DNA of 64,000 nt, from assembly GCA_018673485.1 (NCBI GenBank), contig JABHCP010000007.1, positions 9,890-73,889 of the forward strand, written 5' to 3'. Each line of letters opens with the position of its first letter. Position 1 is the stretch's first letter. Source of the stretch: Candidatus Uhrbacteria bacterium (GTDB lineage Bacteria > Patescibacteriota > Patescibacteriia > UBA9934). Positions 3,082 through 63,681 of the stretch are shown piece by piece. The translations under genes were made by a program, and so were the position numbers. The notes beneath the pieces are model-generated. The model saw only the letters and a program-made list of their open reading frames with translations. It was not told the DNA's origin and ran no database searches.

Positions 3082-3110
3082 GAGAAGATCTCTCCTCGAC
3101 GTCGAGATGG
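3082..3110 (+). repeat. short GC-rich repeat module (GAGAAGATCTCTCC-N6-CGTCGAGATGG)
   Basis: 28/29 identical to the right half of the element inserted in the O-antigen ligase gene at 10208..10270 (reverse orientation). Confidence 0.5.
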
Positions 3111-3152
3111 TAATTATTTATCCATTTCGATGCACCGAAGAAATCCTCTAAC

Positions 3153-3242
3153 TTCGATCGAACGTTGAGCTATCTACGGGATCCTTCCTCCTTCGCTAAA
3201 GCTACGGCGGACTTACAGTCGTCGCCTTACTCCTCTGGATGG
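3153..3242 (+). repeat. modular GC-rich repeat (CGATCGAACGTTGAG...GGGATCCTTC...CTCTGGATGG)
   Basis: shares both terminal blocks with the copy at 42684..42761. Confidence 0.45.
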
Positions 3243-3273: not shown

Positions 3274-5100
3274 CTATTCCCACCAAGCCTCTAATTCAAT
3301 GTCTGTGTAGAAATACTTCAAAATCTCGTCCCACATGTAATCATCATTTGCCATGTGTAAGGCACCGAGTGCTGACATTCCGATTCCGTGGCCCCAAAGT
3401 ATGCCACCTTCTTCCCATGGGACTTCTACTGACTGGCACCAAGCCTTTGTGCCGTTCCACACTTCATCCCAAGACCGAGTTCGTCCGTCTGAGCGTGAGA
3501 AATACGGTGTAATCGCAAGCTCTCCATTATAGGTCACGATCGTACCCCGAGTATCAACAACCGCTTGCACGATTGTTGGCGAATCCTTCTCGTGCTCGTA
3601 TCCACGATACACCTGATCATCAGCATAAGCATTTACATGCATGAATTCTCCTCTTTCAGAAACCTCATAACGCGAATTTGCATAAGCATATGTCCTTGCT
3701 GCAGTCACTAAAGCTTTTTGATATTCAGCAGGTGACACGTCTGAAGTCTCAGCGAGCCCGTACAAATACTGCTCGATTGGTAATTCATTTATCACCCAAG
3801 TTCTTTCTTTATAGTCGTTATATCTTAACTCTAAAATATTTCGATATGTATTGTTTGCAAATCCTGCATTTCGAGTCTCGCGATAATCAAAGTTAACTAT
3901 CGTCATTACCGCGTTTTCCTCCTCTGGCACCCATCGAAGACCGTATGAAGAAACCTCCTGCCCACGCCCAAGATCAAAATAATATTTACCATCATCATAA
4001 TAACCTGTGACCAACTCTCCAGAGTCCAACTCTGCAAGCAAATTCCCTTGCGTGTCTTCAAGCCGGAAATCTGATTCATACGAAGTAATCACGGTTTCGT
4101 AATCTGTTTCTTCGTCTATGGTTAAAAGACCAACTCTGATAATTGGCTCTTCGTCCAATTGGTAATCGATCATTGCATCATCATCTTCATTATCAACTGT
4201 AGCCTCAGCGCCGCCTGTCACTTCAAATGGCAACTCAATGATTGCATCCTCAATCTGCTCTCCATTGGCTGAAAATTGGAATTCAGCTGTGTGAAAACCA
4301 TTTGTGACTGGTGACATTAAAGCGAAACTTATATAAGCAACTTCGCCGGGTGCCACTGGCTCACTAGCATAAGCAAGTTGAGATCCTGACCACGATGGGT
4401 GTTCAAAACTTACAGCTGACGATGCGTAAGCTACATCCATTTCATTTACTGAATACGATGTCCAGCTCTCTGTCCCAATATTTGTAAATCCAGCGGTCAT
4501 TAATATTGAAACTCCTGCTTTTGCCTTAATTGATTTGGCGCTCAAGATGGTCAACTCTGCCTCAAGCCCACTATCAGCTTCGTTAAGCTCTGTGATTGTT
4601 ATCATCTCCTGCACTTCGCTTGTAACATTAATTGAAAAACTAATCTCTCCTCCATCAACCCACGCAATATCCTCTGACGCTAAATGGAACACCTCCACAT
4701 AATCACCTTCAGTGCTTGGCGCGTGCAATTCGAACATCATACTTGCTGTTTCTCCAGGCACGACCACAGGTTCGATAATTCGTTTAACTTGATCCGGCCC
4801 AAGCCATGTTCCAGGATCAAATGAACTTGATCGATACTTTGGCTCATAAGTATAAAGGGAGATATATCCAGCGCCATCGTTATACCAAGTTAAGTCTCCG
4901 TTATTTAGAAATGTCACGCTAACCTCTTTTACTTCCCCTGGAGACATTGTCAGCTCGCCACTTCCAGAGATTGTGACAGGTACCGCCTCGTAAGATGCGG
5001 CCTGAACTGCAGTTGAGATAAAAAAGAACCCGCAAAGCATTAATGCGGTTAAAATTCCCCACTTTTGTAATACATTCATAGCGTTTTGCATTGGTTTCAT
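3274..5100 (-). CDS. secreted SpoIID/LytB-domain protein with long N-terminal beta-rich region
   Basis: signal peptide; C-terminal SpoIID-like motifs EQYLYGLAE, ALVTAARTYA, TPYFSRSDGRT. Confidence 0.65.
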   Translation of the reverse strand: MKPMQNAMNVLQKWGILTALMLCGFFFISTAVQAASYEAVPVTISGSGELTMSPGEVKEVSVTFLNNGDLTWYNDGAGYISLYTYEPKYRSSSFDPGTWLGPDQVKRIIEPVVVPGETASMMFELHAPSTEGDYVEVFHLASEDIAWVDGGEISFSINVTSEVQEMITITELNEADSGLEAELTILSAKSIKAKAGVSILMTAGFTNIGTESWTSYSVNEMDVAYASSAVSFEHPSWSGSQLAYASEPVAPGEVAYISFALMSPVTNGFHTAEFQFSANGEQIEDAIIELPFEVTGGAEATVDNEDDDAMIDYQLDEEPIIRVGLLTIDEETDYETVITSYESDFRLEDTQGNLLAELDSGELVTGYYDDGKYYFDLGRGQEVSSYGLRWVPEEENAVMTIVNFDYRETRNAGFANNTYRNILELRYNDYKERTWVINELPIEQYLYGLAETSDVSPAEYQKALVTAARTYAYANSRYEVSERGEFMHVNAYADDQVYRGYEHEKDSPTIVQAVVDTRGTIVTYNGELAITPYFSRSDGRTRSWDEVWNGTKAWCQSVEVPWEEGGILWGHGIGMSALGALHMANDDYMWDEILKYFYTDIELEAWWE

Positions 5101-5634
5101 GCAGATTGATTATAGCGCACTCTCGGCGTTGGATAAAATATGTTTTCAACAGGATATTAACAAAACAAGAACCCCCACAACAGCGTAGAGATTCGAGTGT
5201 CAGACCAGTGGCCTGATACACCTCTACGGTGCGGGGGTAGATTGGACGTTGTGGGGCCTAAGGCTCACCCACACCCGTCCGCTATGACACTGGCATGCAT
5301 TCCTCGCTCTATCCCGTTTGACGATTGGGATAGCCAAGGGCGAACATGTTCTCCAGCATCTACAGTGACCGCTTCAAAACCACCTCATGACGACCAGTAA
5401 CGTAGGGCCGCCATGGTGACTAGTGATCATCCACGGTCGTGAAAGGTGTGAAACATTGGATAAGTGAACTAGCCACCAATCCGAGGGCTAAGAAGGCTGT
5501 GTCTGGGGAGCCAAGAACCCAGGAGGAGCGCCCACACAAAGGCTCAACCACAGACACAGATACGTTAGCTTGCTACGAGTCTAGATCATTCCAATCAAGG
5601 AGGCCGTGGCCGTACTTGATCTAGGTCTCGCTTG

Positions 5635-5679
5635 CAAGCAACTGAGAAATGACAGAATCAGCTCTCAGTTAACTGCAAT
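5635..5679 (+). repeat. 45-nt direct repeat copy 1 with internal hairpin AACTGAGA-N15-TCTCAGTT
   Basis: 40/45 identity with 6067..6111. Confidence 0.7.
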
Positions 5680-6066
5680 GTTGAAAGTTATGGCCTGCCG
5701 GGAGCAAGTTTTGAACCAGGGAGCACCCAGTGCCCCCGGTCAGACCAAGAAGTTTTGTGGTGAGACACCAGAGGCGGTGACCACTCTGTGCAAGGAGTAG
5801 CCATCCGCTCTGGTGTCACTTTCGTATAGGTGGGTTGCGATCCACACCTAAACTCAGCTGCAATTACCGCGTCATGCACTCAGCCTCTTGGGGCAAGTGG
5901 TCATCCTTTTCCAGGATAATAGGGGCGTGCACTGATCTCTCCCCATAATGACGAAGTTCGTTCCGACATCTTAGCGCTTGGAGCGCTTTGATGTCCGCTG
6001 TATAGGCCACCACAGGCCTAGGAACTAAGTGAAGTTTGCTCGCAGGACCACTCAGGATCCTACTTA

Positions 6067-6111
6067 CAAGCAACTGAGAAGTGACAGTATCAACTCTCAG
6101 TTGCCTGCAAT
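6067..6111 (+). repeat. 45-nt direct repeat copy 2
   Basis: 40/45 identity with 5635..5679; the same hairpin is retained. Confidence 0.7.
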
Positions 6112-7262
6112 CTTAAACTCCGATTGCTAGCAACGCGCCTATAACAAGCGAGTAACTAATATAAATAATTGTTTCCATATATACACCTCCTAGATTATCA
6201 ATTTCTTAATCTCCTAGCAGGGGTCCCAGGGTTCGACAGATGTCTATTACCTGGGAGTGATGTTGATGCGGCGGACACTTCCGTCCTTGCACCTAGTCAC
6301 TACGACCTTCGGCTTTGCGGCATGATCCGACGCCCTCGCCTGCTGCCGAAGCTTGGCAGGGGAGGTCGTGAACCACACACGCTGGCCCCGAAGAGGCCCG
6401 CACTGACTGGTATCCATAGTATCTCCATGTCAGGGTTGAACAGATTGTATTTCAGGGAACTGGGTCTCTCCTTTCCCAGTTCCCTGGAATAAATCCAGGG
6501 ATCTCTCAGTCTTTTCACAGACAGGTTGATGATTATATTCATAACCCTCCAGATGAACCGTCTCTGTCTCTATATAGCTGCCGAGGCAGCGGTGGTTATC
6601 AGCCGTTCACAACAGGGGTCGAGGTTTTGACGAATCCTCCAGACTCTCATCTGAACGCGCATGGGGGAATACGTCCAGGTGAGAATCAAGTGGATATTGA
6701 AATTGGATCGGGAGAGGAGCTACTGAGAGTGGCTCCTCCCCCGAAACACGATCGTACCTTGGTGAACCTCCGTTTGGACTATGGGGCTCACCAATGACCT
6801 ATCATACCCTCACCAGTACCTATCGCATGCGTTAGCACGCGATACCTAAATGGCTGGCGACAGGTGATATCGGTCTAATGACACTTCAAACTCGATACGT
6901 TAGGACGCAACCGCTGTGTCCAGCAGCAATCTGAATCGAGCTCAAATGGGACATGTCACCTTCCGCAAAACTGCGGTTCCCAGGAATATGGTGTGGTAAA
7001 TCACCTCTCCCTTGTCATCCCTCTGACAAGCTAAAGGAATGGCAAGGATGGTGATTTTTGTTGTTAAGTGCTCACTTGAGGAATCTGCCTCATCAGCGAA
7101 CAAGGAAATCTATCATATCTATCAGAATCTGTCAAGCCCTTGATGTACAAAAAAGGTCATATTTGGGCATAATTGGCTAAAATTAAACAAAAAAAGAACC
7201 AATTTTCATCGGTTCTCCCTGTATAGTTTCAGCTTTATACTTTCAACTTTCTATCCTCCCCC

Positions 7263-7291
7263 TTGACAACCAACCACTTTTCATGTATAGT
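7263..7291 (+). promoter_or_regulatory. sigma70-type promoter (TTGACA-17-TATAGT)
   Basis: perfect -35 hexamer, 17-nt spacer, TATAGT -10; points into 7298..7576. Confidence 0.5.
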
Positions 7292-7535
7292 ACTGGGTCG
7301 TGCTGCAGATCTGCGGCGCGCTACACTAGCGGCCCTGAGCCGCTACATCTCGGAGTCATCATGAACGCGTAACCCCGTTGCGCTGTGAGGACCCAACCCC
7401 ATCCAGCCTGGAAGGTTCACAAGTCAACTGGCCCAACGGCCAGATATCATCGCGAACGCACGCCCCGTGCGTCGTGAATAGGAAGACTTCTGCAACCAAT
7501 CAGGAGGTGTGATGTGGGAGGAGTTTAACCACAGC

Positions 7536-7576
7536 GCGGGCCGTCGACTAACCATCGGCGGCCTTCCTATTTTTTA
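7536..7576. terminator. putative bidirectional intrinsic terminator
   Basis: GGCCGTCGAC...GGCGGCC hairpin followed by TTTTTT on the plus strand; lies immediately 3' of the minus-strand TrmB gene. Confidence 0.4.
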
Positions 7577-8360: not shown

Positions 8361-8404
8361 AAAACTCGACTGTATACTGCCTACTGCATACTGTATACTG
8401 TTAC
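8361..8404. repeat. TACTGNN heptad-like tandem repeat
   Basis: TATACTGCCTACTGCATACTGTATACTGTTACTGC between divergent TrmB and flippase genes; related runs at 29590, 46818, 49020. Confidence 0.4.
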
Positions 8405-8408
8405 TGCT

Positions 8409-9848
8409 ATGAACAAAACAAAGGCGCTTGCGCAAAACGCAGCTATACAAATCATTGGTAAAACTGCTGCAACATTATTAGGTGTATTTACAGTTGCGAT
8501 TCTAGCCCGTCACTTGGGCGTTGAAGGCTATGGTCAGTTCACCATCGCGCTTTCGTTTCTTTCTATATTTGCAGTGATTGTCGACTTTGGACTCACGCTC
8601 ACCACAACGCAGATGATCTCAGAAAAAGAAGCAGATGAAGCGACACTGCTTGGAAATCTATTAACACTGCGGATTATCTCAGCAGTAGTGTTCCTGGCCT
8701 TGGCTCCTGTTGTGGCATTGGTATTTCCGTATGATAATGTAATCCAATTAGCAATCGCCATTGGTGCATTCTCATATCTTTTTGGAACTACAGCGCAGAT
8801 GTTTGTTGGCGTGTTCCAAAAACGAATGCTTATGTCGCGTGTCGTAATAGCTGAGCTTGCAAACCGCACCGCTGTACTAATCGGGGTGTTATTCGCACCT
8901 TACTTTGGCTTTGGTGTAGTCGACATTGTTTGGTTGCTCGTAATCGGTAACGCAATTCAATTACTGCTCATGCTTTGGCAGACAAAAGTTCTCGTTGCCT
9001 TCAAACCGAAGCTCAACACCGCAATCTGGAAAAAGATAATCTTACGCAGCTGGCCAATTGGGGCATCCATTTTCTTTAATTTGATCTACCTCAGAGGTGA
9101 TATTGTATTTCTATCAATCTTCCGCGACAATGCCGAGACCGGACTTTACGGAGCGGCATACAAAGTTGTTGATGTGGTTGCTGCAATCCCAGTTATGTAC
9201 ATGGGAATCGCCCTTCCTCTTCTTGTTGCCGCATGGAGCGCGTCGCGAACCAATAGATTCAAAAACTACATGCAAAAGTCTTTCGACTTTTTATCAATTG
9301 CAGCAACGCCAATGATTTTTGGAACAATCGCGCTTGGTGTGCCAATAATGCAACTGGTCGCCGGCATGGAATTCACTGAATCTGGAAGAGTTTTGATGAT
9401 ACTTGGTCCAGCAGCGGCAATCGTATTTTGGAATTCACTTTTTGGACACGCCATCGTTGCACTCAACAAACAAAAAGTCATGACCTGGGGTTATTTAGCA
9501 GTCGCCATCCTGACAGTTGCTGGATACATCTACTTTATACCAATCCACGGCATGTGGGCTGCTGCCTGGCTAACACTTTTCTCTGAAGCTCTCATCGGAA
9601 CGCTGACTTTTGTAGTTGTATGGCGCGTGAGCAAATACTTCCCGTCGCTTAAGATGCTGTCCAAGGCAATTCTTGCGAGCGTTGTAATGTTCATCGTTTT
9701 GGTAATTCTCCCGAATGTACACGTCTTGCTACTAATTCCTCTCGCGATGATCATCTACGTGGCAGCGCTAACCGCGCTTGGTGGACCAAAGCCACAAGAA
9801 GTGTTAAACCTATTCCTACCGGAAAAACCACCTATTAGTCAGCCTTAA
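8409..9848 (+). CDS. polysaccharide biosynthesis protein / Wzx-like oligosaccharide flippase (MOP superfamily)
   Basis: 479 aa, about 12-14 TM segments, N-terminus typical of the PST family. Confidence 0.8.
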   Translation: MNKTKALAQNAAIQIIGKTAATLLGVFTVAILARHLGVEGYGQFTIALSFLSIFAVIVDFGLTLTTTQMISEKEADEATLLGNLLTLRIISAVVFLALAPVVALVFPYDNVIQLAIAIGAFSYLFGTTAQMFVGVFQKRMLMSRVVIAELANRTAVLIGVLFAPYFGFGVVDIVWLLVIGNAIQLLLMLWQTKVLVAFKPKLNTAIWKKIILRSWPIGASIFFNLIYLRGDIVFLSIFRDNAETGLYGAAYKVVDVVAAIPVMYMGIALPLLVAAWSASRTNRFKNYMQKSFDFLSIAATPMIFGTIALGVPIMQLVAGMEFTESGRVLMILGPAAAIVFWNSLFGHAIVALNKQKVMTWGYLAVAILTVAGYIYFIPIHGMWAAAWLTLFSEALIGTLTFVVVWRVSKYFPSLKMLSKAILASVVMFIVLVILPNVHVLLLIPLAMIIYVAALTALGGPKPQEVLNLFLPEKPPISQP

Positions 9849-9853
9849 TTGCC

Positions 9854-9982
9854 TGTCACCCCTGGCTCCGACCAGGGGCCCATCAATTATCGATTCATTG
9901 AGCTTGATGTAACGATGGATCCCCCGCCTACCGGCAGGCAGGCTGCTTTCGACCCGTCTGACGGGTTTCGCAGGAATGACAA
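9854..9982 (+). repeat. about 130-nt structured intergenic repeat (copy 1) carrying a nested CCGG-centred palindromic module
   Basis: near-identical to 62653..62775 apart from a 24-nt insert CCCCCGCCTACCGGCAGGCAGG; compensatory hairpins CCCCTGG/CAGGGG versus CCCGGC/GCCGGG. Confidence 0.6.
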
Positions 9983-9988
9983 AATCAT

Positions 9989-11305
9989 ATGACCACGATT
10001 CTTCTAATCATCCTCTTCATCCTTTTCGCACTTTTAGCCAAGCGTAACCTTAAAGCTGCGCTTATTTTGTTATCTGGACTGTTGCCAATATATCTACTTA
10101 GGATCGAGATTGGACCGATACCCTCAACCACGCTCGAAGTATTGATCTTGATTTGTGCTGTTGCCTGGATCATGAACCTTATCCGTCATCCTGATTCCCA
10201 CACCTCACCATCTCGACGTCTAGGAGAGATCTTCTCAAACAAGAAGACTTCTCACTTCGCTCGAAGTGGGGGCATTAAATGGATTCGACCAACCCTACTA
10301 CTCATTGCCGCAGCTAGTTTCGGGGTCGTCGTTGCACCAGACCTTTTTGGAGCACTTGGAATCTGGAAAGCATACTTCATCGAACCAATTCTCGTTGCAA
10401 TAATGATGCTAACGACCTTTAATCGACGTGACTGGACTCGAGCACTGCAAGCTTTGAGTGTTTCAGCGATCGTACTTTCGATATTCGCCATCGTTCAATA
10501 CTGCACCGGCACCGGAATCCCAACTCCATGGGACATAGAGCTTCGAGTGACAAGCTTTTTCGACTACCCCAACGCACTCGGCCTATTCCTAGCACCAATA
10601 GTGTCATTGAATCTTATCTTGTCATTCCTGCGAAAGCAGGAATCCATCATTTTTCGATCGATCTCGATCGTAACAATCATCCTCGGCCTCACAGCAATCA
10701 TCCTCTCCCAAACCGAAGCAGCACTCGTTGCCATCCCAGCCGCCGTGATAATCACACTACTCATTTCAGAAATTTCAAAAAAATCTAAAGTTATTCTACT
10801 GGTCCTATCGGTCCTACTGGTCGCATGCTCACTACTCATCCCTACAGTCCGCGAAAAACTAACCCTCCAAGACTACTCAGGACAAGTTCGAATCTCACAA
10901 TGGACTGAAACGCTCGAGCTCATTAAAGACAAACCATTCTTTGGCGCTGGACTAAACGGATACCCAACAGCGCTCACGCCATATCACAACTCAACACTCT
11001 ACGAAATCTTCCAGTACCCTCACAACATAATCCTAAACACCTGGACCGAACTCGGACTCCTCGGCCTAATCGCATTATTCTGGTTTGCATATCTAATCCT
11101 AAAACAAACCATCTCGACGCCCAGGAGAGATTCTCTCAAGAAGACTTCTCCTGACGTCGAAGTGGGTATACTACAACTCGCCCTCTTTGCAGCACTCCTC
11201 ACGATCCTCATCCACGGCCTGGTCGATGTCCCCTATTTCAAAAACGACCTTGCAGTCATGACATGGATACTGTTCGCTGGATACATCGCCATTAAAAGAA
11301 AATGA
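9989..11305 (+). CDS. O-antigen ligase/polymerase family membrane protein (Wzy_C domain)
   Basis: 438 aa polytopic protein; C-terminal block GAGLNGYPTALTPYHNS...HNIILNTWTELGLLGLI typical of Wzy_C. Confidence 0.75.
   Translation: MTTILLIILFILFALLAKRNLKAALILLSGLLPIYLLRIEIGPIPSTTLEVLILICAVAWIMNLIRHPDSHTSPSRRLGEIFSNKKTSHFARSGGIKWIRPTLLLIAAASFGVVVAPDLFGALGIWKAYFIEPILVAIMMLTTFNRRDWTRALQALSVSAIVLSIFAIVQYCTGTGIPTPWDIELRVTSFFDYPNALGLFLAPIVSLNLILSFLRKQESIIFRSISIVTIILGLTAIILSQTEAALVAIPAAVIITLLISEISKKSKVILLVLSVLLVACSLLIPTVREKLTLQDYSGQVRISQWTETLELIKDKPFFGAGLNGYPTALTPYHNSTLYEIFQYPHNIILNTWTELGLLGLIALFWFAYLILKQTISTPRRDSLKKTSPDVEVGILQLALFAALLTILIHGLVDVPYFKNDLAVMTWILFAGYIAIKRK
10208..10270 (-). mobile_element. 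63-bp MITE-like GC-rich element inserted in frame in the O-antigen ligase ORF
   Basis: imperfect TIRs CCCACTTCGA / TCGAGATGG; internal half 28/29 identical to the intergenic copy at 3082..3110; encodes the extra peptide SPSRRLGEIFSNKKTSHFARSGG. Confidence 0.5.
11109..11166 (-). mobile_element. 58-bp MITE-like element, second in-frame copy in the same ORF
   Basis: same termini and internal GAGAAGTCTTCTTG core as 10208..10270; encodes TPRRDSLKKTSPDVEVG. Confidence 0.5.
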
Positions 11306-20393: not shown

Positions 20394-20774
20394 CTAACCA
20401 GCGAGGCCTGCAGTGGTCAGTGACGTAATCACGAAGTTTGAAATCGCGTACGCTGCCAAAAGGATAATTAATCCGATTACAGCATTGATCATGATGTCCT
20501 TTGCCTTTTGAGTCTTGTCTGACTCACCACCGGCTGTCATCCACAAGAATCCTGCGTAGATAACAAGAACTAGCAAGATGATTCCCAATAGAGTAAGGAA
20601 AACTTTGATCAGGTCTCCGATCGTCGCGGCAAGTGGCTCGTCTGAGAACTCTGCAGCTAAAGCTGCACTATCAAGCTCAGTACTAATGTCCTGTGCGTGA
20701 ACTGGTGCTGCAAGCATTGGAACTGACAACAGTCCGATTGCGAGCAATGCGCCTAGTTTTTTGAGATATCCCAT
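20394..20774 (-). CDS. TrbC/VirB2-family pilin-like protein (paralog 1)
   Basis: Sec signal ending AHAQ; two C-terminal TM helices with the loop IYAGFLWMTAGGESDKTQKAKD. Confidence 0.7.
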   Translation of the reverse strand: MGYLKKLGALLAIGLLSVPMLAAPVHAQDISTELDSAALAAEFSDEPLAATIGDLIKVFLTLLGIILLVLVIYAGFLWMTAGGESDKTQKAKDIMINAVIGLIILLAAYAISNFVITSLTTAGLAG

Positions 20775-20836
20775 AGTAATAAATTAATAACTCTTTTAAT
20801 TAGTAATCTTATTTTAACATTTTTTGTAATCCTACG

Positions 20837-21190
20837 CTATATAGCCAACTGTATAGAATCGATAACGAAATTCGAAATTGCATACGCTGCCAATAGGATA
20901 ATTAGTCCAATCACGGCATTGATCATGAAATCTTTTGCCTTCTTAGTCTTATCCGTCTCACCACCAGCTGTCATCCACAGGAATCCTGCGTAGATCATTA
21001 TCAACAATAATATTATACCGAGTATCGAAAGCGCAACACCGATTATACCACCAATCATTACTGGCAAAGTAGCCTCTGAGAACCCGACTTGACCCTGCGC
21101 ATCGTCAACTTGGCTAGTGAAATCAAGCGCCCAAACAGTCACGGGGCTCGCCAGCACCAAACAAACAATTGAAAAAACTAACTTCTTCAT
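20837..21190 (-). CDS. TrbC/VirB2-family pilin-like protein (paralog 2)
   Basis: start taken at MKKLVFS; IYAGFLWMTAGGETDKTKKAKD loop. Confidence 0.7.
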   Translation of the reverse strand: MKKLVFSIVCLVLASPVTVWALDFTSQVDDAQGQVGFSEATLPVMIGGIIGVALSILGIILLLIMIYAGFLWMTAGGETDKTKKAKDFMINAVIGLIILLAAYAISNFVIDSIQLAI

Positions 21191-21555
21191 AATGATGGGG
21201 CGTTGAGCGCTGTAAAGATGTATGTCGTAATGGCGTATGCTGCTGTGATAATTATTACACCGATCACAGCACGAATCATTAAGTCTTTTGCTTTTTGAAC
21301 TTGATCGGAGGCTCCACCGGCTGTCATCCATAGGAATCCCGCGTATACCATCAGTACCAAAAAGATCAGACCAACGAGCGCTAATGCTGGGGTAATAATC
21401 TTAGTTCCAACCCATTGACCAAGAGTTTGATCAAGAGTTCCATAAACCTCGGCACCTGTAGCATCCAAGCCAGTTTCGGATGGATCTAGCTGCGCAAAGA
21501 CAAGTGTGGGGCCAAGAAGCAGCGCAACGGCTGCAAGGGCGATGTATTTTCGCAT
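21187..21555 (-). CDS. TrbC/VirB2-family pilin-like protein (paralog 3)
   Basis: start taken at MRKYIAL; VYAGFLWMTAGGASDQVQKAKD loop. Confidence 0.7.
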   Translation of the reverse strand: MRKYIALAAVALLLGPTLVFAQLDPSETGLDATGAEVYGTLDQTLGQWVGTKIITPALALVGLIFLVLMVYAGFLWMTAGGASDQVQKAKDLMIRAVIGVIIITAAYAITTYIFTALNAPSL

Positions 21556-21601
21556 AGCCAAGTGCCAGCACGTATGTGCTGGCAAAAGGTCATAAGAAAA
21601 T

Positions 21602-22006
21602 TTAACCAGCTGAGGCGGTAATCACGGAATCGATCACAAAACTTGTAATCGCAAACGCTGACAAGATAATCGCCAGTCCGATAACACCAGCAATTAAGAG
21701 TCGTTTCGCTTCCGAGACTTTGTCTTCGTTTCCACTTGCTGTCATCCACTTAAATCCACCCAAGAGAACCATTACTACTGCAATAATTCCAAGGAATCCA
21801 AGGAAAACGCGAATAAGATTCCCAATAGTCTCTTTTAGGTTGGCTTGTCCGAGCCCTGAACTATCTGAAAAATCGTCATCAAAGAAATCTGAAGTATCAA
21901 GTTGCTGTGCGTGAGCAACAGGAACGTTTGTAGCGAAAGTCATTGTTCCCAACAGAGGGATCGCTACTAAGAAACTAAGTGCGAATAGTGATAGCGCTTT
22001 TGTCAT
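21602..22006 (-). CDS. TrbC/VirB2-family pilin-like protein (paralog 4)
   Basis: signal peptide; LLGGFKWMTASGNEDKVSEAKR loop. Confidence 0.65.
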   Translation of the reverse strand: MTKALSLFALSFLVAIPLLGTMTFATNVPVAHAQQLDTSDFFDDDFSDSSGLGQANLKETIGNLIRVFLGFLGIIAVVMVLLGGFKWMTASGNEDKVSEAKRLLIAGVIGLAIILSAFAITSFVIDSVITASAG

Positions 22007-22058
22007 AGTGTTTTATGATTAATAATATTAAATAGTTGAATCGCTCGATTATATCTCG

Positions 22059-22126
22059 CTTGTTGAAGATGTTTAAGTTGTTTATTTCAGAGTAAACACT
22101 TTAAACACCTTCAACAATTTAAACAT
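22059..22126. promoter_or_regulatory. conserved upstream element, copy 2
   Basis: shares the GTTTAYTTCRGARTAAACACTTTAAACA core with 16841..16889. Confidence 0.5.
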
Positions 22127-22132
22127 CAGCTC

Positions 22133-22468
22133 TTAGACGCTTCCAGTCAGAACTGCGCTGAAGATTGCGTCTGTTAAAACATACGCTCCAGCAATCAGGA
22201 TGATCCCCAGAGTCGCCCAAACCAAAATGTCCTTTCCCTTTTTCACCTGATCTCCTTTTCCCATGTCTGTAAGCCACAGGATGCCACCATATACAAACAT
22301 CAGAAGCGCCAATGTTCCGGCAACGGACAATGCGCCGCTAATAACTGTTCCGATGATCACTCGTACATCGTTCTCACCCAAAGGATTAGTAAGAGTGACC
22401 TGAGCTTGTGCTATATATGGCATAGCCAGCGCTCCTACACTCACGATAATAGCCTTAATCTTTTTCAT
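22133..22468 (-). CDS. TrbC/VirB2-family pilin-like protein (paralog 5)
   Basis: signal peptide AQAQ; VYGGILWLTDMGKGDQVKKGKD loop. Confidence 0.65.
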   Translation of the reverse strand: MKKIKAIIVSVGALAMPYIAQAQVTLTNPLGENDVRVIIGTVISGALSVAGTLALLMFVYGGILWLTDMGKGDQVKKGKDILVWATLGIILIAGAYVLTDAIFSAVLTGSV

Positions 22469-22491
22469 AGAAATATTATATCAAGATTTTT

Positions 22492-22992
22492 CTATTGCGT
22501 CTGAATGATATCCGCAGCCCCGGCGCCATCTACTGCATTATCGATTGTATCTTCAATATCCGTCGTTGGAATCTCTCCAGTTGTAATAACAGAAACGACA
22601 ACGTTAATAACGGCATATGCACCCATAATAATCGCCAATCCCACCAAGGCTCCGATAATCGCCTTCTTTCCTTCGTCCACCATTCCAGCTTCACCATGGG
22701 CTAGAATCCACTTCATACCTCCATAAACTAAAATGAACATCATCACAGAACCAGTGATTCCAAAGATGAAAACGCTCAAATTAACTAAAAGCTGCATCAT
22801 GTCCTCGAGCGTACACTTACCATGGTCTCTGCATTCGCACGCTGCACTCGCGCTTGAACAAATACCGGCAAAGATAAGTCCCTGATCTTGAATCTCGGCA
22901 TACCTACCTGCGATTGATTGAGCCTGAACACTAGGCACAAAAACACCCAGCATCGCAAAGGACAATAAAAATGTTAATGCATACTTTTTCAT
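22492..22992 (-). CDS. TrbC/VirB2-family pilin-like protein with Cys-rich insert (paralog 6)
   Basis: signal peptide VQAQ; CSSASAACECRDHGKC insert; VYGGMKWILAHGEAGMVDEGKK loop. Confidence 0.6.
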   Translation of the reverse strand: MKKYALTFLLSFAMLGVFVPSVQAQSIAGRYAEIQDQGLIFAGICSSASAACECRDHGKCTLEDMMQLLVNLSVFIFGITGSVMMFILVYGGMKWILAHGEAGMVDEGKKAIIGALVGLAIIMGAYAVINVVVSVITTGEIPTTDIEDTIDNAVDGAGAADIIQTQ

Positions 22993-23084
22993 ACGGTATT
23001 ATTATAACACGGAGTATGCAGTAGGCGGTATACAGCCGTGCCCGCCCGAAGCCCAGAGGGCGAAGGAGGGTGCTCAGTGCATAA

Positions 23085-27227: not shown

Positions 27228-27267
27228 CGGTTTCACTAATTGAACGATCGTTCAATTAGTGAAACCG
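27228..27267. repeat. 40-bp perfect palindrome centred on CGATCG
   Basis: CGGTTTCACTAATTGAACGATCGTTCAATTAGTGAAACCG, 3' of iscS. Confidence 0.8.
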
Positions 27268-27285
27268 TCCGATCTTCGTAATATG

Positions 27286-29417: not shown

Positions 29418-29481
29418 GCCCCCGCGGCCAACACGCACGTCAAAACCCCACCGCCAACTGGCGCGTGGGGTTCTCAGCTTT

Positions 29482-29536
29482 TAGTAGATCTCTCGTCGCT
29501 CCGACCCGTCAGACGGGTCTTCGCTCCTCGAGATGG
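29482..29536 (+). repeat. modular GC-rich repeat (TAGTAGATCTCTC...hairpin...CTCGAGATGG)
   Basis: termini as at 63653..63681; inner hairpin CGACCCGTCAGACGGGTC as in 9854..9982. Confidence 0.5.
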
Positions 29537-29624
29537 AAAAGGGGGGTAAAGGCTGGGGGGACCTTAAATACAAAACCAGCTTTCGCTGGTTATCTTAAAC
29601 TGCGTACTGAGTACTGCGCACTAA

Positions 29625-31331: not shown

Positions 31332-31455
31332 ATCACGGACATTATAACGCTTTGTAGTTAATAATCAAAGAATGTAGAGAGTAGAATGTAGAATGTAGTT
31401 TTTGATCTGAATACTACCCTCTACTTTCTACCTTCTACTTTCTGGGTTATAATGA

Positions 31456-31884: not shown

Positions 31885-31998
31885 TAGTAGATAAAAACAG
31901 CCCGCTTTCAAAGCGGGCCTTGTGCTTGAAAAGAGTAATTAAACCTGCTACACTCTTCGCGTGGCCATCCGTCTTCGCATAAAGCTACGACGGACACA

Positions 31999-32018
31999 GC
32001 GTGGCGAAGCTAGTTAAC
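31999..32018 (+). other. partial duplicate of the tRNA-Cys 5' half
   Basis: GCGTGGCGAAGCTAGTTAAC matches tRNA nt 6-25 (19/20); a 3'-end-like CGCGTGGCCATCCGT lies at about 31959. Confidence 0.4.
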
Positions 32019-32144
32019 CCACCGACGCTCCTCTGGAGCTTTGGCGGGCACGTCACGTCGTTCGCGAACGACGTGACAGGCGCGACTCCGTCACTCACCT
32101 TCGATGGTGGTCGCAAGTAGTTCTTTTCTATAAATTTATGATAT

Positions 32145-32221
32145 GGCCACGTGGCGAAGCTGGTTAACGCGACGGTCTGCAAAACCGTTACGCGTCGGTT
32201 CGAGTCCGACCGTGGCCTCCA
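32145..32221 (+). tRNA. tRNA-Cys (GCA)
   Basis: cloverleaf: acceptor GGCCACG/CGTGGCC, anticodon stem ACGGT/ACCGT, loop CTGCAAA, T-arm GTCGG-TTCGAGT-CCGAC, encoded CCA. Confidence 0.85.
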
Positions 32222-41963: not shown

Positions 41964-42021
41964 TAGTAGATCCCCTGCCTACCGGCAGGCAGGCTCGACT
42001 CCCTTCGGTCGCTCAGGATGA
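41964..42021 (+). repeat. modular GC-rich repeat containing the CCGG-centred palindromic module
   Basis: TAGTAGATCCCCTGCCTACCGGCAGGCAGG... shares the module with 9918..9944. Confidence 0.5.
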
Positions 42022-42063
42022 CAACATTGTATATTTACTGTTGTCACTTTATACTGACACCGT

Positions 42064-42647: not shown

Positions 42648-42683
42648 GAAAAAAACACCCATCTCGAGGAGTCCAAAGACGAC

Positions 42684-42761
42684 GAGAGATCCCGTGCGTA
42701 ACCGATCGAACGTTGAGATAGCGGTGGGATCCTTCGGCCCGTCGGACGGGCCTCTGGATGG
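42684..42761 (+). repeat. modular GC-rich repeat (copy of 3153..3242 type)
   Basis: CGATCGAACGTTGAGATA...GGGATCCTTC-hairpin-CTCTGGATGG. Confidence 0.45.
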
Positions 42762-44239: not shown

Positions 44240-44380
44240 GCCATTGAGTAAATAAAATCAGGAGACATTCCTCCTGTTTCCGATTGCATTGTATCAAGTT
44301 ATTGCTAGTTTGATCAAAAAGGTTTCACTAAGGTCCCGATCGGCCCTTTAGTGAAACCTTCTTGACGTCGACGGCTTGGC

Positions 44381-45656: not shown

Positions 45657-45885
45657 ACTTAACAGCTTTTTTCTTCCCCCTCTCTCAACCCCCATCAAAC
45701 CTGAAGGACTCCCATGTCCAACTCACGGTTTGTGGGGGGTTCTTCTTTTATAGAAAAAATAGACAACTTACCGCTTAGATGGCCCTGTGTTTTTTTTCTA
45801 TCCATTCGATGTTCGATCGGACATTTTATGAATTTATCAAAATTGCTTTTGAGGCTGATTTAAAGACTGCGTTTAGAGATATCAA

Positions 45886-45921
45886 TTTTCATAATACGTT
45901 CGATCGAACGTATTATGAAAA
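45886..45921. repeat. 36-bp perfect palindrome centred on CGATCG
   Basis: TTTTCATAATACGTTCGATCGAACGTATTATGAAAA; a degenerate relative at 45806..45826. Confidence 0.8.
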
Positions 45922-45982
45922 TAAAGCATCAACGCCCCACTCGTTGTACGAGTTGGGGCGTAGTTGATTGCGCACGAGGGCG

Positions 45983-46820: not shown

Positions 46821-46851
46821 GCACTGCGAACTGAGCACTGCGTACTATATT

Positions 46852-48986: not shown

Positions 48987-49055
48987 AAACGAAAGAGCCG
49001 ACTCGCGCCGGCCCTTTTTTATCTGTGTACTGTGAACTGCGTACTGTGCACTTCA

Positions 49056-52672: not shown

Positions 52673-52710
52673 ATTTTCATGATAGGTTCGATCGAACCTA
52701 TCATGAAAAT
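52673..52710. repeat. 38-bp perfect palindrome centred on CGATCG
   Basis: ATTTTCATGATAGGTTCGATCGAACCTATCATGAAAAT abutting the stop codon of 52710..53252. Confidence 0.8.
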
Positions 52711-57516: not shown

Positions 57517-57580
57517 TCAAGTGAACTCACACATAGTCGCTTTTGAGTTGATTCTAAAGACCATATTTATGAACGCCAAT

Positions 57581-57614
57581 GTTCGCGTTAGGTTCGATCG
57601 AACCTAACGCGAAC
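57581..57614. repeat. 34-bp perfect palindrome GTTCGCGTTAGGTTCGATCGAACCTAACGCGAAC
   Basis: CGATCG-centred family; shares the TAGGTTCGATCGAACCTA core with 52673..52710. Confidence 0.8.
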
Positions 57615-57639
57615 AGAAGATGCTCGCATTGGAATTTAA

Positions 57640-61724: not shown

Positions 61725-62645
61725 ATGGAAAAGAAAAGTGTACTACAGAAATATATTAGGCAGTTCTTGGAGTATCTTGAAATTGAACGCGGTCGGTCGG
61801 AGCGAACCGTACGCAACTATGATTTTTATTTACAACGATTTGCTAACTGGGCTAAGCACCCACAGCCAAATAAGATAACTCAAGAGATGGTTCGAAAGTA
61901 CCGGCTGTACCTAAATCGATCAGTCGAGGGCCGCGATGACGTCACTCTTAAAAAGTCCACTCAGAATTACCACCTAATAGCCCTTCGATCATTTTTGAAG
62001 TATTTATCAAAGCGCGATATCAAGACAATGTCAGCAGACAAGATCGAGCTGGCGAAAACCGGAGACAGAAAGATTGAGTTTTTAGAAGAGGATGAATTGC
62101 GTCGAATGTTGAATGCCACAAAGGATACAGGTGGCCTCATTGGACGACGTGATCGAGCGATTCTGGAAATGCTTTTCTCAACTGGCCTACGCGTTTCTGA
62201 GCTTGCACAACTGCTCATCAAAGAAGTGAATATCAAACGTGGTGAGTTTAGCGTTAATGGAAAAGGTAGCAAGCACCGAGTTGTGTTCTTATCAGACGAT
62301 TCCCGTGATTCAATTAAAGAGTACCTCGATGTTCGCAAAGACATGTCTCCTTACTTGTTCGTGAGTCATGATCGTGCCAAGCACAGAAGAGATTCTTTAC
62401 CGATCTCTCCACGTACCATCCAAAGAATAGTCGAGCGCTACGCAACGGCCGCGGGAATTACAAAAAAGATCACACCACACACTCTAAGACACACATTCGC
62501 GACTGATCTACTCAGAAACGGTGCAGACATCCGATCAGTCCAGGCAATGCTCGGCCACGAGTCAATAACAACAACTCAGATTTACACCCACGTGACTGAC
62601 AAGCAACTTAAAAAGATTCACAAAAAGTTCCATGGGGCGAAATAA
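61725..62645 (+). CDS. tyrosine recombinase XerC/XerD family
   Basis: core-binding N-terminal domain; catalytic R..HxxR..Y region (HTLRHTFATDLL...ITTTQIYTHV). Confidence 0.85.
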   Translation: MEKKSVLQKYIRQFLEYLEIERGRSERTVRNYDFYLQRFANWAKHPQPNKITQEMVRKYRLYLNRSVEGRDDVTLKKSTQNYHLIALRSFLKYLSKRDIKTMSADKIELAKTGDRKIEFLEEDELRRMLNATKDTGGLIGRRDRAILEMLFSTGLRVSELAQLLIKEVNIKRGEFSVNGKGSKHRVVFLSDDSRDSIKEYLDVRKDMSPYLFVSHDRAKHRRDSLPISPRTIQRIVERYATAAGITKKITPHTLRHTFATDLLRNGADIRSVQAMLGHESITTTQIYTHVTDKQLKKIHKKFHGAK

Positions 62646-62652
62646 TTCACTT

Positions 62653-62775
62653 CTGTCATCCCGGCCGTAGAGCCGGGATCCATCGAGATGCAGAATTCGA
62701 TCGAACTGAATCGAGCTTGATGTAACGATGGGTTCCTGCTTTCGACCCGTCTGACGGGTTTCGCAGGAATGACAA
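62653..62775 (+). repeat. about 125-nt structured intergenic repeat (copy 2, without the nested module)
   Basis: see 9854..9982. Confidence 0.6.
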
Positions 62776-63652: not shown

Positions 63653-63681
63653 TAGTAGATCTCTCCTAGGCGTCGAGATGG
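63653..63681 (+). repeat. short GC-rich repeat module TAGTAGATCTCTCCTAGGCGTCGAGATGG
   Basis: matches 3082..3110 and the internal halves of the intragenic elements at 10208 and 11109. Confidence 0.5.

Follow-up and report, generated by a model that had tools for sequence, protein, structure and literature searches.

A 20-nt palindromic module nested in NTS-like hairpin mosaics of Candidatus Uhrbacteria and its association with small tRNA-Leu-linked GIY-YIG genes

How does a GC-rich palindrome of some 20 nt come to be present in one copy of a larger hairpin repeat and absent from another? The question is raised by a 64-kb stretch of a Candidatus Uhrbacteria contig (JABHCP010000007.1; the window hereafter, meaning the whole stretch that was analysed), which carries two composite repeats, copy 1 (9854-9982) and copy 2 (62654-62775), the former with a palindromic module (the 20-mer) that the latter does not have. 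An original prediction, made from the sequence alone, held that tiny palindromic modules insert into pre-existing repeats of this type. Here we describe the anatomy of the composites, the distribution and insertion sites of the 20-mer in other genomes, and its linkage to a small GIY-YIG nuclease gene. We favour, with moderate confidence, a reading in which mosaics of hairpins resembling the NTS repeats of Neisseria were later entered by a non-autonomous mobile 20-mer, with the GIY-YIG gene as its likely autonomous partner.

Among the closest described precedents is SsnA, a 94-residue single-domain GIY-YIG nuclease specific for single-stranded DNA (ssDNA); hairpins of the NTS type, and more widely the Ssn-related motifs (SRM), are substrates that nucleases of this family bind and cut alongside (PMC11893778, Chenal et al. 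2025). The Neisseria NTS, CGTCATTCCCGCGMAVGCGGGAATCYRG, contains the dRS3 repeat (ATTCCC-N8-GGGAAT), and the bases critical for SsnA activity are the GTC upstream of the palindrome and the C that follows it (PMC11893778).

Results

Copy 1 differs from copy 2 by a discrete 20-nt insertion

All of the sequences cited in the original prediction were found where it had placed them. Its description of the two copies as near-identical holds for the right half, in which two blocks are 100% identical (9900-9918 with 62713-62731, 19 nt; 9943-9982 with 62736-62775, 40 nt, blastn E 8.6e-18), but not for the left hairpins and spacers, which differ. Each composite is built of two inverted hairpin units, comprising TGTCAYYCC, a variable stem-loop-stem and GGRATCCATC, around a spacer centred on CGATCG or ATCGAT (Table 1). 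In the right unit of both copies a lineage-specific GACCCGTCTGACGGGT hairpin, seen in loci of this species only, occupies the GAAA loop, which is duplicated.

Copy 1 holds 24 nt (ATCCCCCGCCTACCGGCAGGCAGG) at the place of 4 nt (GTTC) in copy 2, i.e. a net gain of 20 nt. The insert, which had been described as 24 nt long and as an 18/20 palindrome, is indeed a discrete palindromic module, but one of 20 nt, the copy 1 version of which (CCCGCCTACCGGCAGGCAGG) is 16/20 self-complementary and a degenerate member of the cross-phylum family CCTGCCTRCCGGCAGGCAGG. The proposed insertion site, GGAT^C, was not borne out, the actual point in both module copies of the window being GATCC^CT. The second of these copies was correctly predicted to lie inside another element: it occupies 41974-41993 within the otherwise unrelated element at 41964-42024, with which copy 1 has 27 nt in common at 96% identity, with one mismatch (9918-9944 vs 41969-41995, E 1.2e-7).

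A third copy of the composite with a different spacer (L186) was found in JGI metagenomes, as were, from other organisms, related units whose loop insert differs; the repeat family is therefore not confined to the window. At the position that it occupies in copy 1, the 20-mer is absent from the copy 2, L186 and L181-L187 versions of the host unit. Because three other versions lack it, parsimony favours insertion in copy 1 over repeated deletion, which argues against the possibility, raised with the original prediction, that the apparent insert is ancestral.

Hairpin potential is kept through compensatory stem changes, as had been proposed. The left stems differ yet remain self-complementary (CCCCTGG/CCAGGGG in copy 1 vs ATCCCGGC/GCCGGGAT in copy 2), and further paired changes are present at 10620-10648 (ATTCCTGC/GCAGGAAT) and in a relative, L010 (ATCCCCGA/TCGGGGAT); the compensatory variation is seen in about four simple units only. 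Copy 2 is predicted to fold into a three-way junction with the closing stem TGTCAT/ATGACA (z = -3.85; 0/200 shuffles as stable). The weaker fold of copy 1 (z = -1.47) reflects interruption of its right-hand stem by the 20-mer.

The host units resemble NTS hairpins in a REPIN-like arrangement

The host units closely resemble, at the level of sequence, the Neisseria NTS. All carry an unpaired 5' tag of the HGTCWY type, TGTCAT or TGTCAC, before the stem (9854, 62654 and 10620 on the plus strand; 9982, 62775 and 42024 on the minus strand), and dRS3-like palindromes followed by C are present at 10620-10648 (ATTCCTGC-GAAA-GCAGGAAT-CC) and 62654-62684 (ATCCCGGC-N6-GCCGGGAT-CC). The units have in common with the NTS an unpaired GTC-A/T, a palindrome that starts with ATTCC, a GAAA-type loop, GGAAT and then C. 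The core of the 10620-10648 unit has 23/25 bases of the NTS core, from which TGTCATTCCTGCGAAAGCAGGAATCC differs by one compensatory base pair. Like NTS/SRM elements, the units are multi-copy, occur across phyla and form mosaic clusters of the kind that NIMEs represent.

The arrangement of the units follows that of REPIN, BIME and NIME elements, and we consider them to be of a known kind in a new lineage. Copy 1, copy 2 and L186 are inverted doublets of the REPIN type, in which the two units and the short spacer between them fold together as one larger hairpin. In common with REP, BIME and REPIN elements (PMC3116915, PMC3733652), the elements described here, host units and 20-mer taken together, are short, GC-rich extragenic palindromes in inverted doublets with spacers and in mosaic clusters; they lie downstream of genes and occasionally within them, can be inserted in other palindromes and are targets of IS110-family elements. 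The tag that defines REPs is GTAG or CGTC (PMC3733652), neither of which is on the units, the tags of which are TGTCAY and CCATC. With respect to miniature transposons of the MITE type, copy 1, copy 2 and L186 have a TGTCAT/ATGACA terminal inverted repeat but no flanking direct repeats, and the 20-mer too enters without duplication, which sets both apart from MITEs.

The 20-mer is found across bacterial phyla and in phages

When one genome per GTDB species was scanned for exact copies of CCYGCCTACCGGCAGGCAGG, the A-variant of the 20-mer, at least 120 genome loci in ~12 phyla were returned, compared with ~2 expected by chance. Carriers include Bacteroidota (among them cultured Olivibacter, Flavobacteriaceae R38 and Thermobacterium), Ignavibacteria, Nitrospirota, Chloroflexota, Planctomycetota and Omnitrophota, as well as Desulfobacterota-type lineages, Acidobacteriota, WOR-3, Stahlbacteria, Gammaproteobacteria and many groups of the Candidate Phyla Radiation (CPR). 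Among viral contigs the perfect palindrome, CCTGCCTGCCGGCAGGCAGG, was found in 35 stretches, the A-variant in 12 and the A-T variant in 1; each of two control palindromes matched in design and composition gave 0. The flanks of the 20-mer are not conserved between loci.

Full-text literature searches with the 20-mer and its sub-strings returned nothing relevant, and a search combining GIY-YIG, tRNA-Leu and palindromes gave nothing beyond the Ssn paper (PMC11893778). Relative to the literature that we found, the cross-phylum 20-mer, its nesting and its link to a tRNA-Leu-associated GIY-YIG gene are new.

Insertion is clean and occurs at foldable sites

The proposal that tiny modules insert into pre-existing repeats is supported by clean 20-nt insertions in hairpins, in tRNA loops and in the 20-mer itself, with empty sites in the same contigs. 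On one viral contig a host repeat is filled in 3 of ~20 copies, the empty ones being shorter by exactly 20 nt (GGAGAGGG^GTTGGGGG). At a GIY-YIG locus (see below) the filled site GGAATTG[M]GTATACA, with [M] denoting the 20-mer, has the empty counterpart GGAATTGGTATACA, and another filled site at such a locus reads GCGGG[M]TTCGATTCCCGC. Comparison of filled with empty sites reveals no target duplication. The 7-nt direct repeats seen at 8.5% of sites were considered as a candidate target-site duplication and rejected, both on account of these clean pairs and because a cut in any array of period 7 looks alike; such tandem arrays surround 8.5% of 20-mer sites, compared with 0.43% of control positions.

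The 20-mer often lies in the loop of another hairpin, as in GATTCCCGC[M]TTTCGCGGGAATGACA, a terminator loop and hairpins of the GGAGAGG type, and it is nested in its own centre in CCTGCCTAC[M]CGGCAGGCAGG. When nesting was measured by counting stems anchored at the junctions, perfect flanking stems of at least 6 bp were present at 10.6% of 20-mer sites vs 1.6% of control positions; for stems of 7 bp or more the shares were 6.8% and 0.4%. This count replaced an earlier measure, RNAduplex energies between the flanks, which gave a weak signal over a high background. A tRNA gene lies within 600 nt of 12% of sites (~4% expected). The 20-mer is mostly extragenic: long open frames contain 36% of its sites, compared with 80% of random positions. 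In a phage tRNA-Met gene the variable loop holds the 20-mer as an extra arm (L168, 2239-2330), and ARAGORN still calls the tRNA.

Two observations concern individual loci. On the viral contig L145 the T-arm adjoining a 20-mer (8616-8635) is partly deleted. In the Bacteroidales metagenome-assembled genome GCA_041393315.1 (L199, 1745-3058) an IS110-family element with a DEDD_Tnp_IS110 / Transposase_20 gene lies precisely within a 20-mer, with the junctions CCTGCCTGCCGG and CAGGCAGG on either side of the insertion sequence; the 20-mer is therefore also an IS110 target, like REP and dRS3.

A small GIY-YIG gene lies beside the 20-mer at tRNA-Leu loci

A hidden Markov model was built from four small GIY-YIG open reading frames (ORFs) beside 20-mers and searched against all fetched loci (2.3-14.7 kb, mostly 8 kb). 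It identified 10 ORFs in 9 loci, each 0-122 nt from a 20-mer, encoding proteins of 77-90 residues with PF01541 as the sole match; homologs from Patescibacteria and Bacteroidota are 61-77% identical. The association was approached from both sides. Among module-selected loci the GIY-YIG gene is present in 9/168. For loci selected by the protein, a 20-mer lies within ~100 nt in 5/6, always by tRNA-Leu and its fragments, and in the sixth the 20-mer is split into 12 + 8 nt by an IS110-family element. The recurrent architecture consists of an upstream partial tRNA copy, with one or two 20-mers in its D-loop or stem junctions, followed by the ORF and then an intact tRNA without the 20-mer.

A search of a cluster-representative library gives matches to 2606 clusters at E <= 1e-3, and in 23 of the best 150 representatives the called N terminus reads through a 20-mer (giving LPAGRQ or PACRQAG); the recurrent peptide VAELVD-LPAGRQA corresponds to tRNA-Leu GGTAGA^C followed by the 20-mer. 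The nearest solved structure is that of the UPF0213 protein 1YWL (E = 0.009). The genes for 77-90 residues have features of an Ssn-type system, namely a single GIY-YIG domain, a length of no more than ~100 residues and a hairpin repeat of their own on the flanks.

At two of the loci (L114, ~4820-5100; L175, ~830-960) the 'intact' tRNA that follows the GIY-YIG ORF appears to have a long insert past the CT of the anticodon loop, which may be a group I intron; the insert in L114 contains an NTS-like unit, TGTCATCCTCTGGCTTGACCAGAGGATCCAG.

Genomic context of the composites

Window genes include dnaA, rpmH and rnpA, and homologs of its Wzy-like gene carry the names Patescibacteria or Candidatus Uhrbacteria. 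Both composites begin shortly (6-8 nt) past a stop codon, between co-directional genes. Copy 1 starts 6 nt 3' of the stop codon (9846-9848) of a Polysacc_synt gene, and its right unit ends 7 nt short of the ATG (9989) of the Wzy-like (Wzy_C) gene; copy 2 starts 8 nt 3' of the stop of a XerC/D-like recombinase gene (61725-62645). There is no T-tract terminator at the composites, and Rfam at gathering thresholds matched tRNA-Cys alone in the whole window, with no known RNA family at the repeats. Turnover is indicated by three relatives (Wzy proteins 69-78% identical), in which the orthologous spacer between Polysacc_synt and Wzy is occupied by three other types of hairpin repeat. The loci of both copies are identical across independent metagenome assemblies, and the xerC-downstream locus, compared in five other assemblies, was the same in all, with no strain variation.

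Other repeats of the window

The window is rich in further short hairpin repeats, the positions of which are collected with those of the composites in Table 1.

Table 1. Repeat units, spacers and nested modules of the window, by position and strand
Feature	Position	Strand	Sequence or remark
Copy 1, left NTS/SRM-like hairpin unit	9854..9884	+	TGTCACCCCTGG-CTCCGA-CCAGGGGCCCATC
Copy 1, spacer	9885..9912	.	ATCGAT centre; 3' part (9900-9918) same as 62713-62731
Copy 1, right unit, inverted, two nested inserts	9913..9982	-	TTGTCATTCCTGCGAAA...GGATCCATCG on minus strand
Copy 1, 20-nt palindromic module	9923..9942	.	CCCGCCTACCGGCAGGCAGG, inserted at GGATCC^CTGC
Copy 1, nested hairpin in GAAA loop of right unit	9951..9966	.	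GACCCGTCTGACGGGT; flanked by CGAAA/TTTCG duplication
Copy 2, left hairpin unit	62654..62684	+	TGTCATCCCGGC-CGTAGA-GCCGGGATCCATC
Copy 2, spacer	62685..62725	.	contains TTCGATCGAA at 62696-62705
Copy 2, right unit, inverted, 'empty' state	62726..62775	-	GACCCGTCTGACGGGT insert (62744-62759); 20-mer absent
Mosaic element between rpmH and rnpA	41964..42024	-	TAGTAGATCC terminus, 20-mer, GTCATCCTGAGCG...GAGTCGAG unit
20-mer in rpmH-rnpA mosaic	41974-41993		exact CCTGCCTACCGGCAGGCAGG; 18/20 self-complementary
GTCATCCTGAGCG...GAGTCGAG unit in rpmH-rnpA mosaic	41994-42024	-	
Simple hairpin unit in Wzy-like ORF	10620..10648	+	TGTCATTCCTGCGAAAGCAGGAATCCATC, translated SFLRKQESI
CCATCTCGACGTCTAGGAGAGATCT-type repeat, in frame, first variable loop of Wzy-like ORF	10207..10290	-	
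Second CCATCTCGACGTCTAGGAGAGATCT-type repeat, in frame, C-terminal variable loop of Wzy-like ORF	11097..11175	-	
AGATCTCTCCTCGACGTCGAGATGG unit, intergenic copy	3082..3111	+	
AGATCTCTCCTCGACGTCGAGATGG unit, intergenic copy	63657..63681	+	TAGTAGATC terminus
TAGTAGATCTCTC...CGAGATGG element	29478..29536	+	GACCCGTCAGACGGGTC hairpin between TCGCTCC direct repeats
Mosaic of three units	42659..42761	+	CCATCTCGAGG...GAGAGATC; CGATCGAACGTTGAG spacer; GGATCCTTC-GGCCCGTCGGACGGGCC-TCTGGATGG
Related mosaic	3153..3242	+	TTCGATCGAACGTTGAG spacer, then GGATCCTTC...CTCTGGATGG unit

The elements that the original prediction listed as related (3153-3242, 29482-29536 and 42684-42761) do have sub-blocks in common: GACCCGTCNGACGGGT at 29503-29518 matches 9951-9966, and 3155-3187 is 85% identical to 42703-42735. 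The 16-mer TTTCGCAGGAATGACA occurs exactly three times in the window, and with up to 3 mismatches 5 times vs 0.8 expected (0/100 shuffles reach 5). Within the Wzy-like gene three repeat-derived segments (10207-10290, 10620-10648 and 11097-11175), all in variable loops, are translated, and its orthologs have differing GC-rich inserts at the same three loops, one of which (VIPDSDRGSI, in ortholog P0003) is encoded by a TGTCATCCCCGA...TCGGGGATCCATCG unit. This is reminiscent of the Rickettsia palindromic elements (RPEs), which also are hairpin repeats in frame in conserved ORFs and translated as extra loop residues; the likeness is by analogy only, since the sequences are unrelated, RPEs are ~100-150 bp long and the host lineage is another.

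Several further features of the window were noted. TTCGATCGAA occurs 7 times vs 0.07 expected (3153, 45899, 48933, 52687, 57036, 57593 and 62696) and CGATCG 35 times vs 12.8 expected. Several long palindromes, for the most part intergenic, are centred on the former (45885-45922, 52673-52710, 57579-57616) and others on the latter (27229-27269, 44321-44361). TTCGATCGAA/CGATCG is a highly iterated palindrome of the HIP1-like type, which may be linked to a CGATCG/GATC methyltransferase. Heptamer arrays of the ACTGCRT and GAATGTA types (8367-8408, 23013-23038, 29590-29620, 46830-46851, 49030-49055 and 31375-31440; also L009, 9920-9990) are often inverted around a central palindrome, that of L009 being the 20-nt near-palindrome CGGTTCGAGATCTTGAACCG; the arrays call to mind the STRR repeats of cyanobacteria. 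Some 130 nt upstream of the intact tRNA-Cys gene (32145-32221), part of its D-arm is present a second time (32000-32019, one mismatch), embedded in GC-rich hairpins (31992-32111) with no ORF there, and the region resembles the remnants, tRNA fragment plus hairpin, seen beside GIY-YIG cassettes elsewhere.

Between SpoIID-like and TrmB-like genes, ~2.4 kb (5101-7566) are without a long ORF. This gap is kept in three relatives at 71-88% nucleotide identity (87% for 5106-5355). Within it a stretch of 55 nt is directly repeated (5631-5685 / 6063-6117), and Rfam gives no match; it may represent either a decayed gene or a large and conserved non-coding RNA. Five tandem small genes at 20394-22992 match T4SS_pilin (PF18895) and contain a 222-nt internal direct repeat (20428-20649 / 20862-21083, 73%), and a similar array is present in the relative L010.

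Discussion

The observed sequence relations, filled and empty sites, site preferences, cross-phylum spread and linkage of gene to module suggest the following picture. The scaffold of the composites consists of doublets of inverted NTS/SRM-like units, following the logic of REPIN/BIME and NIME elements, into which smaller hairpins have inserted, GACCCGTCTGACGGGT in both copies and the 20-mer, at GGATCC^CTGC, in copy 1 alone. The 20-mer behaves as a free-standing, non-autonomous mobile module that inserts cleanly and favours sites that become single-stranded on folding, i.e. the loops of hairpins and of tRNA genes (D, T and variable) and its own centre, with insertion probably occurring in DNA that is transiently single-stranded and folded. 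Its autonomous partner is most likely the conserved single-domain GIY-YIG gene of 77-90 residues by tRNA-Leu, which module-bearing tRNA fragments adjoin. By analogy with SsnA, the nuclease may recognise the 20-mer as an ssDNA hairpin and drive its spread during replication or repair, the copies in the window then being solo 'orphans'. A stronger version, which we offer tentatively and hold to be plausible rather than probable, is that CCTGCCTGCCGGCAGGCAGG is a 20-bp mobile element and the cognate hairpin of an undescribed tRNA-Leu-associated GIY-YIG clade that excises or copies it into ssDNA loops, with mosaics of the 9854-9982 type as the fossil record. It is possible that the composites serve as 3'-end RNA or DNA structures downstream of genes.

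The likeness of the 20-mer system to Ssn lies in a gene flanked by hairpins and a single-domain GIY-YIG protein of <100 residues. The nesting of the 20-mer in hairpins and tRNA fragments, and the position of its gene by tRNA-Leu, differ from what is described for NTS/SRM, neither being mentioned in the available part of the Ssn paper text (PMC11893778). Each REP family belongs to one species or genus, whereas the 20-mer is unchanged across phyla, and the gene associated with it is of the GIY-YIG rather than the HUH/Y1 type; none of the 40 window ORFs scanned is a RAYT.

Other small repeats offer likenesses of a different type. The cyanobacterial SDRs, of 21-27 nt, were reportedly described by Elhai and co-workers in 2008 as 'very small mobile repeated elements'; like the 20-mer, they are mobile-looking units of ~20 nt, non-coding by size and nested in larger repeats. 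SDRs are confined to the Nostocales, and no enzyme partner is known to have been proposed for them. The association of the 20-mer with period-7 tandem arrays recalls that reported for the STRR heptamer arrays. The mitochondrial GC clusters and palindromic elements of yeasts, other fungi and green algae are likewise GC-rich, non-coding mini-hairpins that have spread through AT-richer spacers and into each other; unlike the 20-mer, they are organellar and have species-specific sequences, and no nuclease gene is known to be linked to them.

A number of points weigh against a mobile 20-mer served by a GIY-YIG partner on an NTS-like scaffold. About 70% of 20-mer copies have no enclosing hairpin and no tRNA or GIY-YIG gene nearby. 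The 64-kb window and 56 kb from three relatives yielded no GIY-YIG gene; a scan of the window for the GIY...YIG motif gave no match, and Pfam searches of 40 window ORFs gave neither GIY-YIG nor Y1 transposase. The two 20-mer copies of the window are identical in every assembly and thus give no sign of recent mobility. For GIY-YIG enzymes cleavage is known but joining is not, which leaves the insertion of the 20-mer unexplained. The proteins of 77-90 residues are candidate members of the Ssn clade (cd10448), the likeness being one of size, single domain and flanking hairpins, and the 20-mer, a perfect palindrome, lacks the oriented, asymmetric GTC tag of NTS/SRM hairpins. Moreover, the published SRM string, HGTCWYN(0-2)YYVSBRHN(0-5)WNVSBRGN(0-2)RNCYNB, finds no match in the window, compared with an average of 0.18 in shuffled sequence, and the simple unit misses it at one stem position, a T-A pair where A is forbidden; for this reason we call the host units NTS-like rather than strict SRM members.

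An indirect link between gene and module is an unlikely alternative. The 20-mer and the GIY-YIG gene may both favour foldable DNA (tRNA genes and hairpins), or the cassette may home to module sites, with the 20-mer spread by another process, such as template switching in host replication or repair, or gene conversion among dispersed hairpins. The distance of most 20-mers from any such gene (9/168 loci with it) and the want of a known strand-joining activity in GIY-YIG nucleases are as this would have it, and the mosaic of shared blocks in copies 1 and 2 resembles the outcome of inter-repeat recombination. It accounts less well for the presence of a 20-mer within ~120 nt of every examined GIY-YIG ORF of the family, for the location of 20-mers in the upstream tRNA fragment and never in the adjacent intact tRNA, and for the recurrence of this arrangement in many protein clusters of <50% identity. 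Movement of REP/REPIN-type elements by an HUH tyrosine transposase (a RAYT or a TnpA of the IS200/IS605 type) with its gene at another place in the genome would explain the inverted spacer doublets, the duplication-free insertion and the preference for single-stranded loops, which are hallmarks of 'peel and paste' transposition, and there are documented cases of REPs that lie inside genes or are nested in palindromes (PMC3733652). Given, however, that the units have no GTAG or CGTC tag, that the 40 window ORFs scanned with Pfam include no Y1 transposase and that the gene adjoining the 20-mers is a GIY-YIG gene, we consider this improbable.

Little probability likewise attaches to the proposal that selection maintains the composites for a function in cis (as 3'-end mRNA stabilisers, terminators or protein-binding sites, for instance), their modularity being a by-product. 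Their position between co-directional genes, 6-8 nt past a stop codon, their compensatory stem changes and the unusual stability of copy 2 (z = -3.85) are consistent with such a role; yet three unrelated types of hairpin repeat occupy the orthologous site in three relatives, the 20-mer destroys the host stem of copy 1 (z = -1.47), a T-tract terminator is absent and like units stand in frame inside an ORF. That the 20-mer is ancestral and was deleted from copy 2, or arose repeatedly de novo as (CCTG)2-CCGG-(CAGG)2 by slippage or snap-back, is very improbable and, in our view, largely refuted: although its 4-nt periodicity and the longer CCTG/CAGG runs at some sites would fit, the copy 2, L186 and L181-L187 units lack it at this position, two control palindromes of the same design gave 0 matches vs 35 and 12, the same asymmetric A-variant recurs at least 120 times, and the host family is lineage-restricted while the 20-mer crosses phyla. 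Carriers are mostly metagenome-assembled genomes, as an artefact of assembly or sequencing (a palindromic adaptor, or chimeric joins at hairpins) would predict, but the chance of this is negligible, because the 20-mer is present in the isolates Olivibacter oleidegradans, Flavobacteriaceae bacterium R38, Thermobacterium salinum, Salinimicrobium sediminis and Mucilaginibacter psychrotolerans, independent assemblies agree exactly at the window loci, and the placement of the 20-mer is precise and structurally sensible.

If the reading of the 20-mer as a mobile module with a GIY-YIG partner is correct, CCTGCCTGCCGGCAGGCAGG would be among the smallest mobile elements known, too short for coding and yet near-identical in a dozen bacterial phyla, however distant, and in phages. 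The host hairpins put a CPR genome among the lineages with NTS-like hairpins, and here such repeats are also translated within a membrane-protein gene. Cultured carriers, including Salinimicrobium, Mucilaginibacter and Olivibacter, make experiments feasible. Recognition of the 20-mer by the nuclease would represent a new specificity among site-specific ssDNA nucleases, and, were the nuclease to spread the 20-mer, the two would constitute a testable enzyme-substrate pair for how REP, SDR and mitochondrial GC clusters move.

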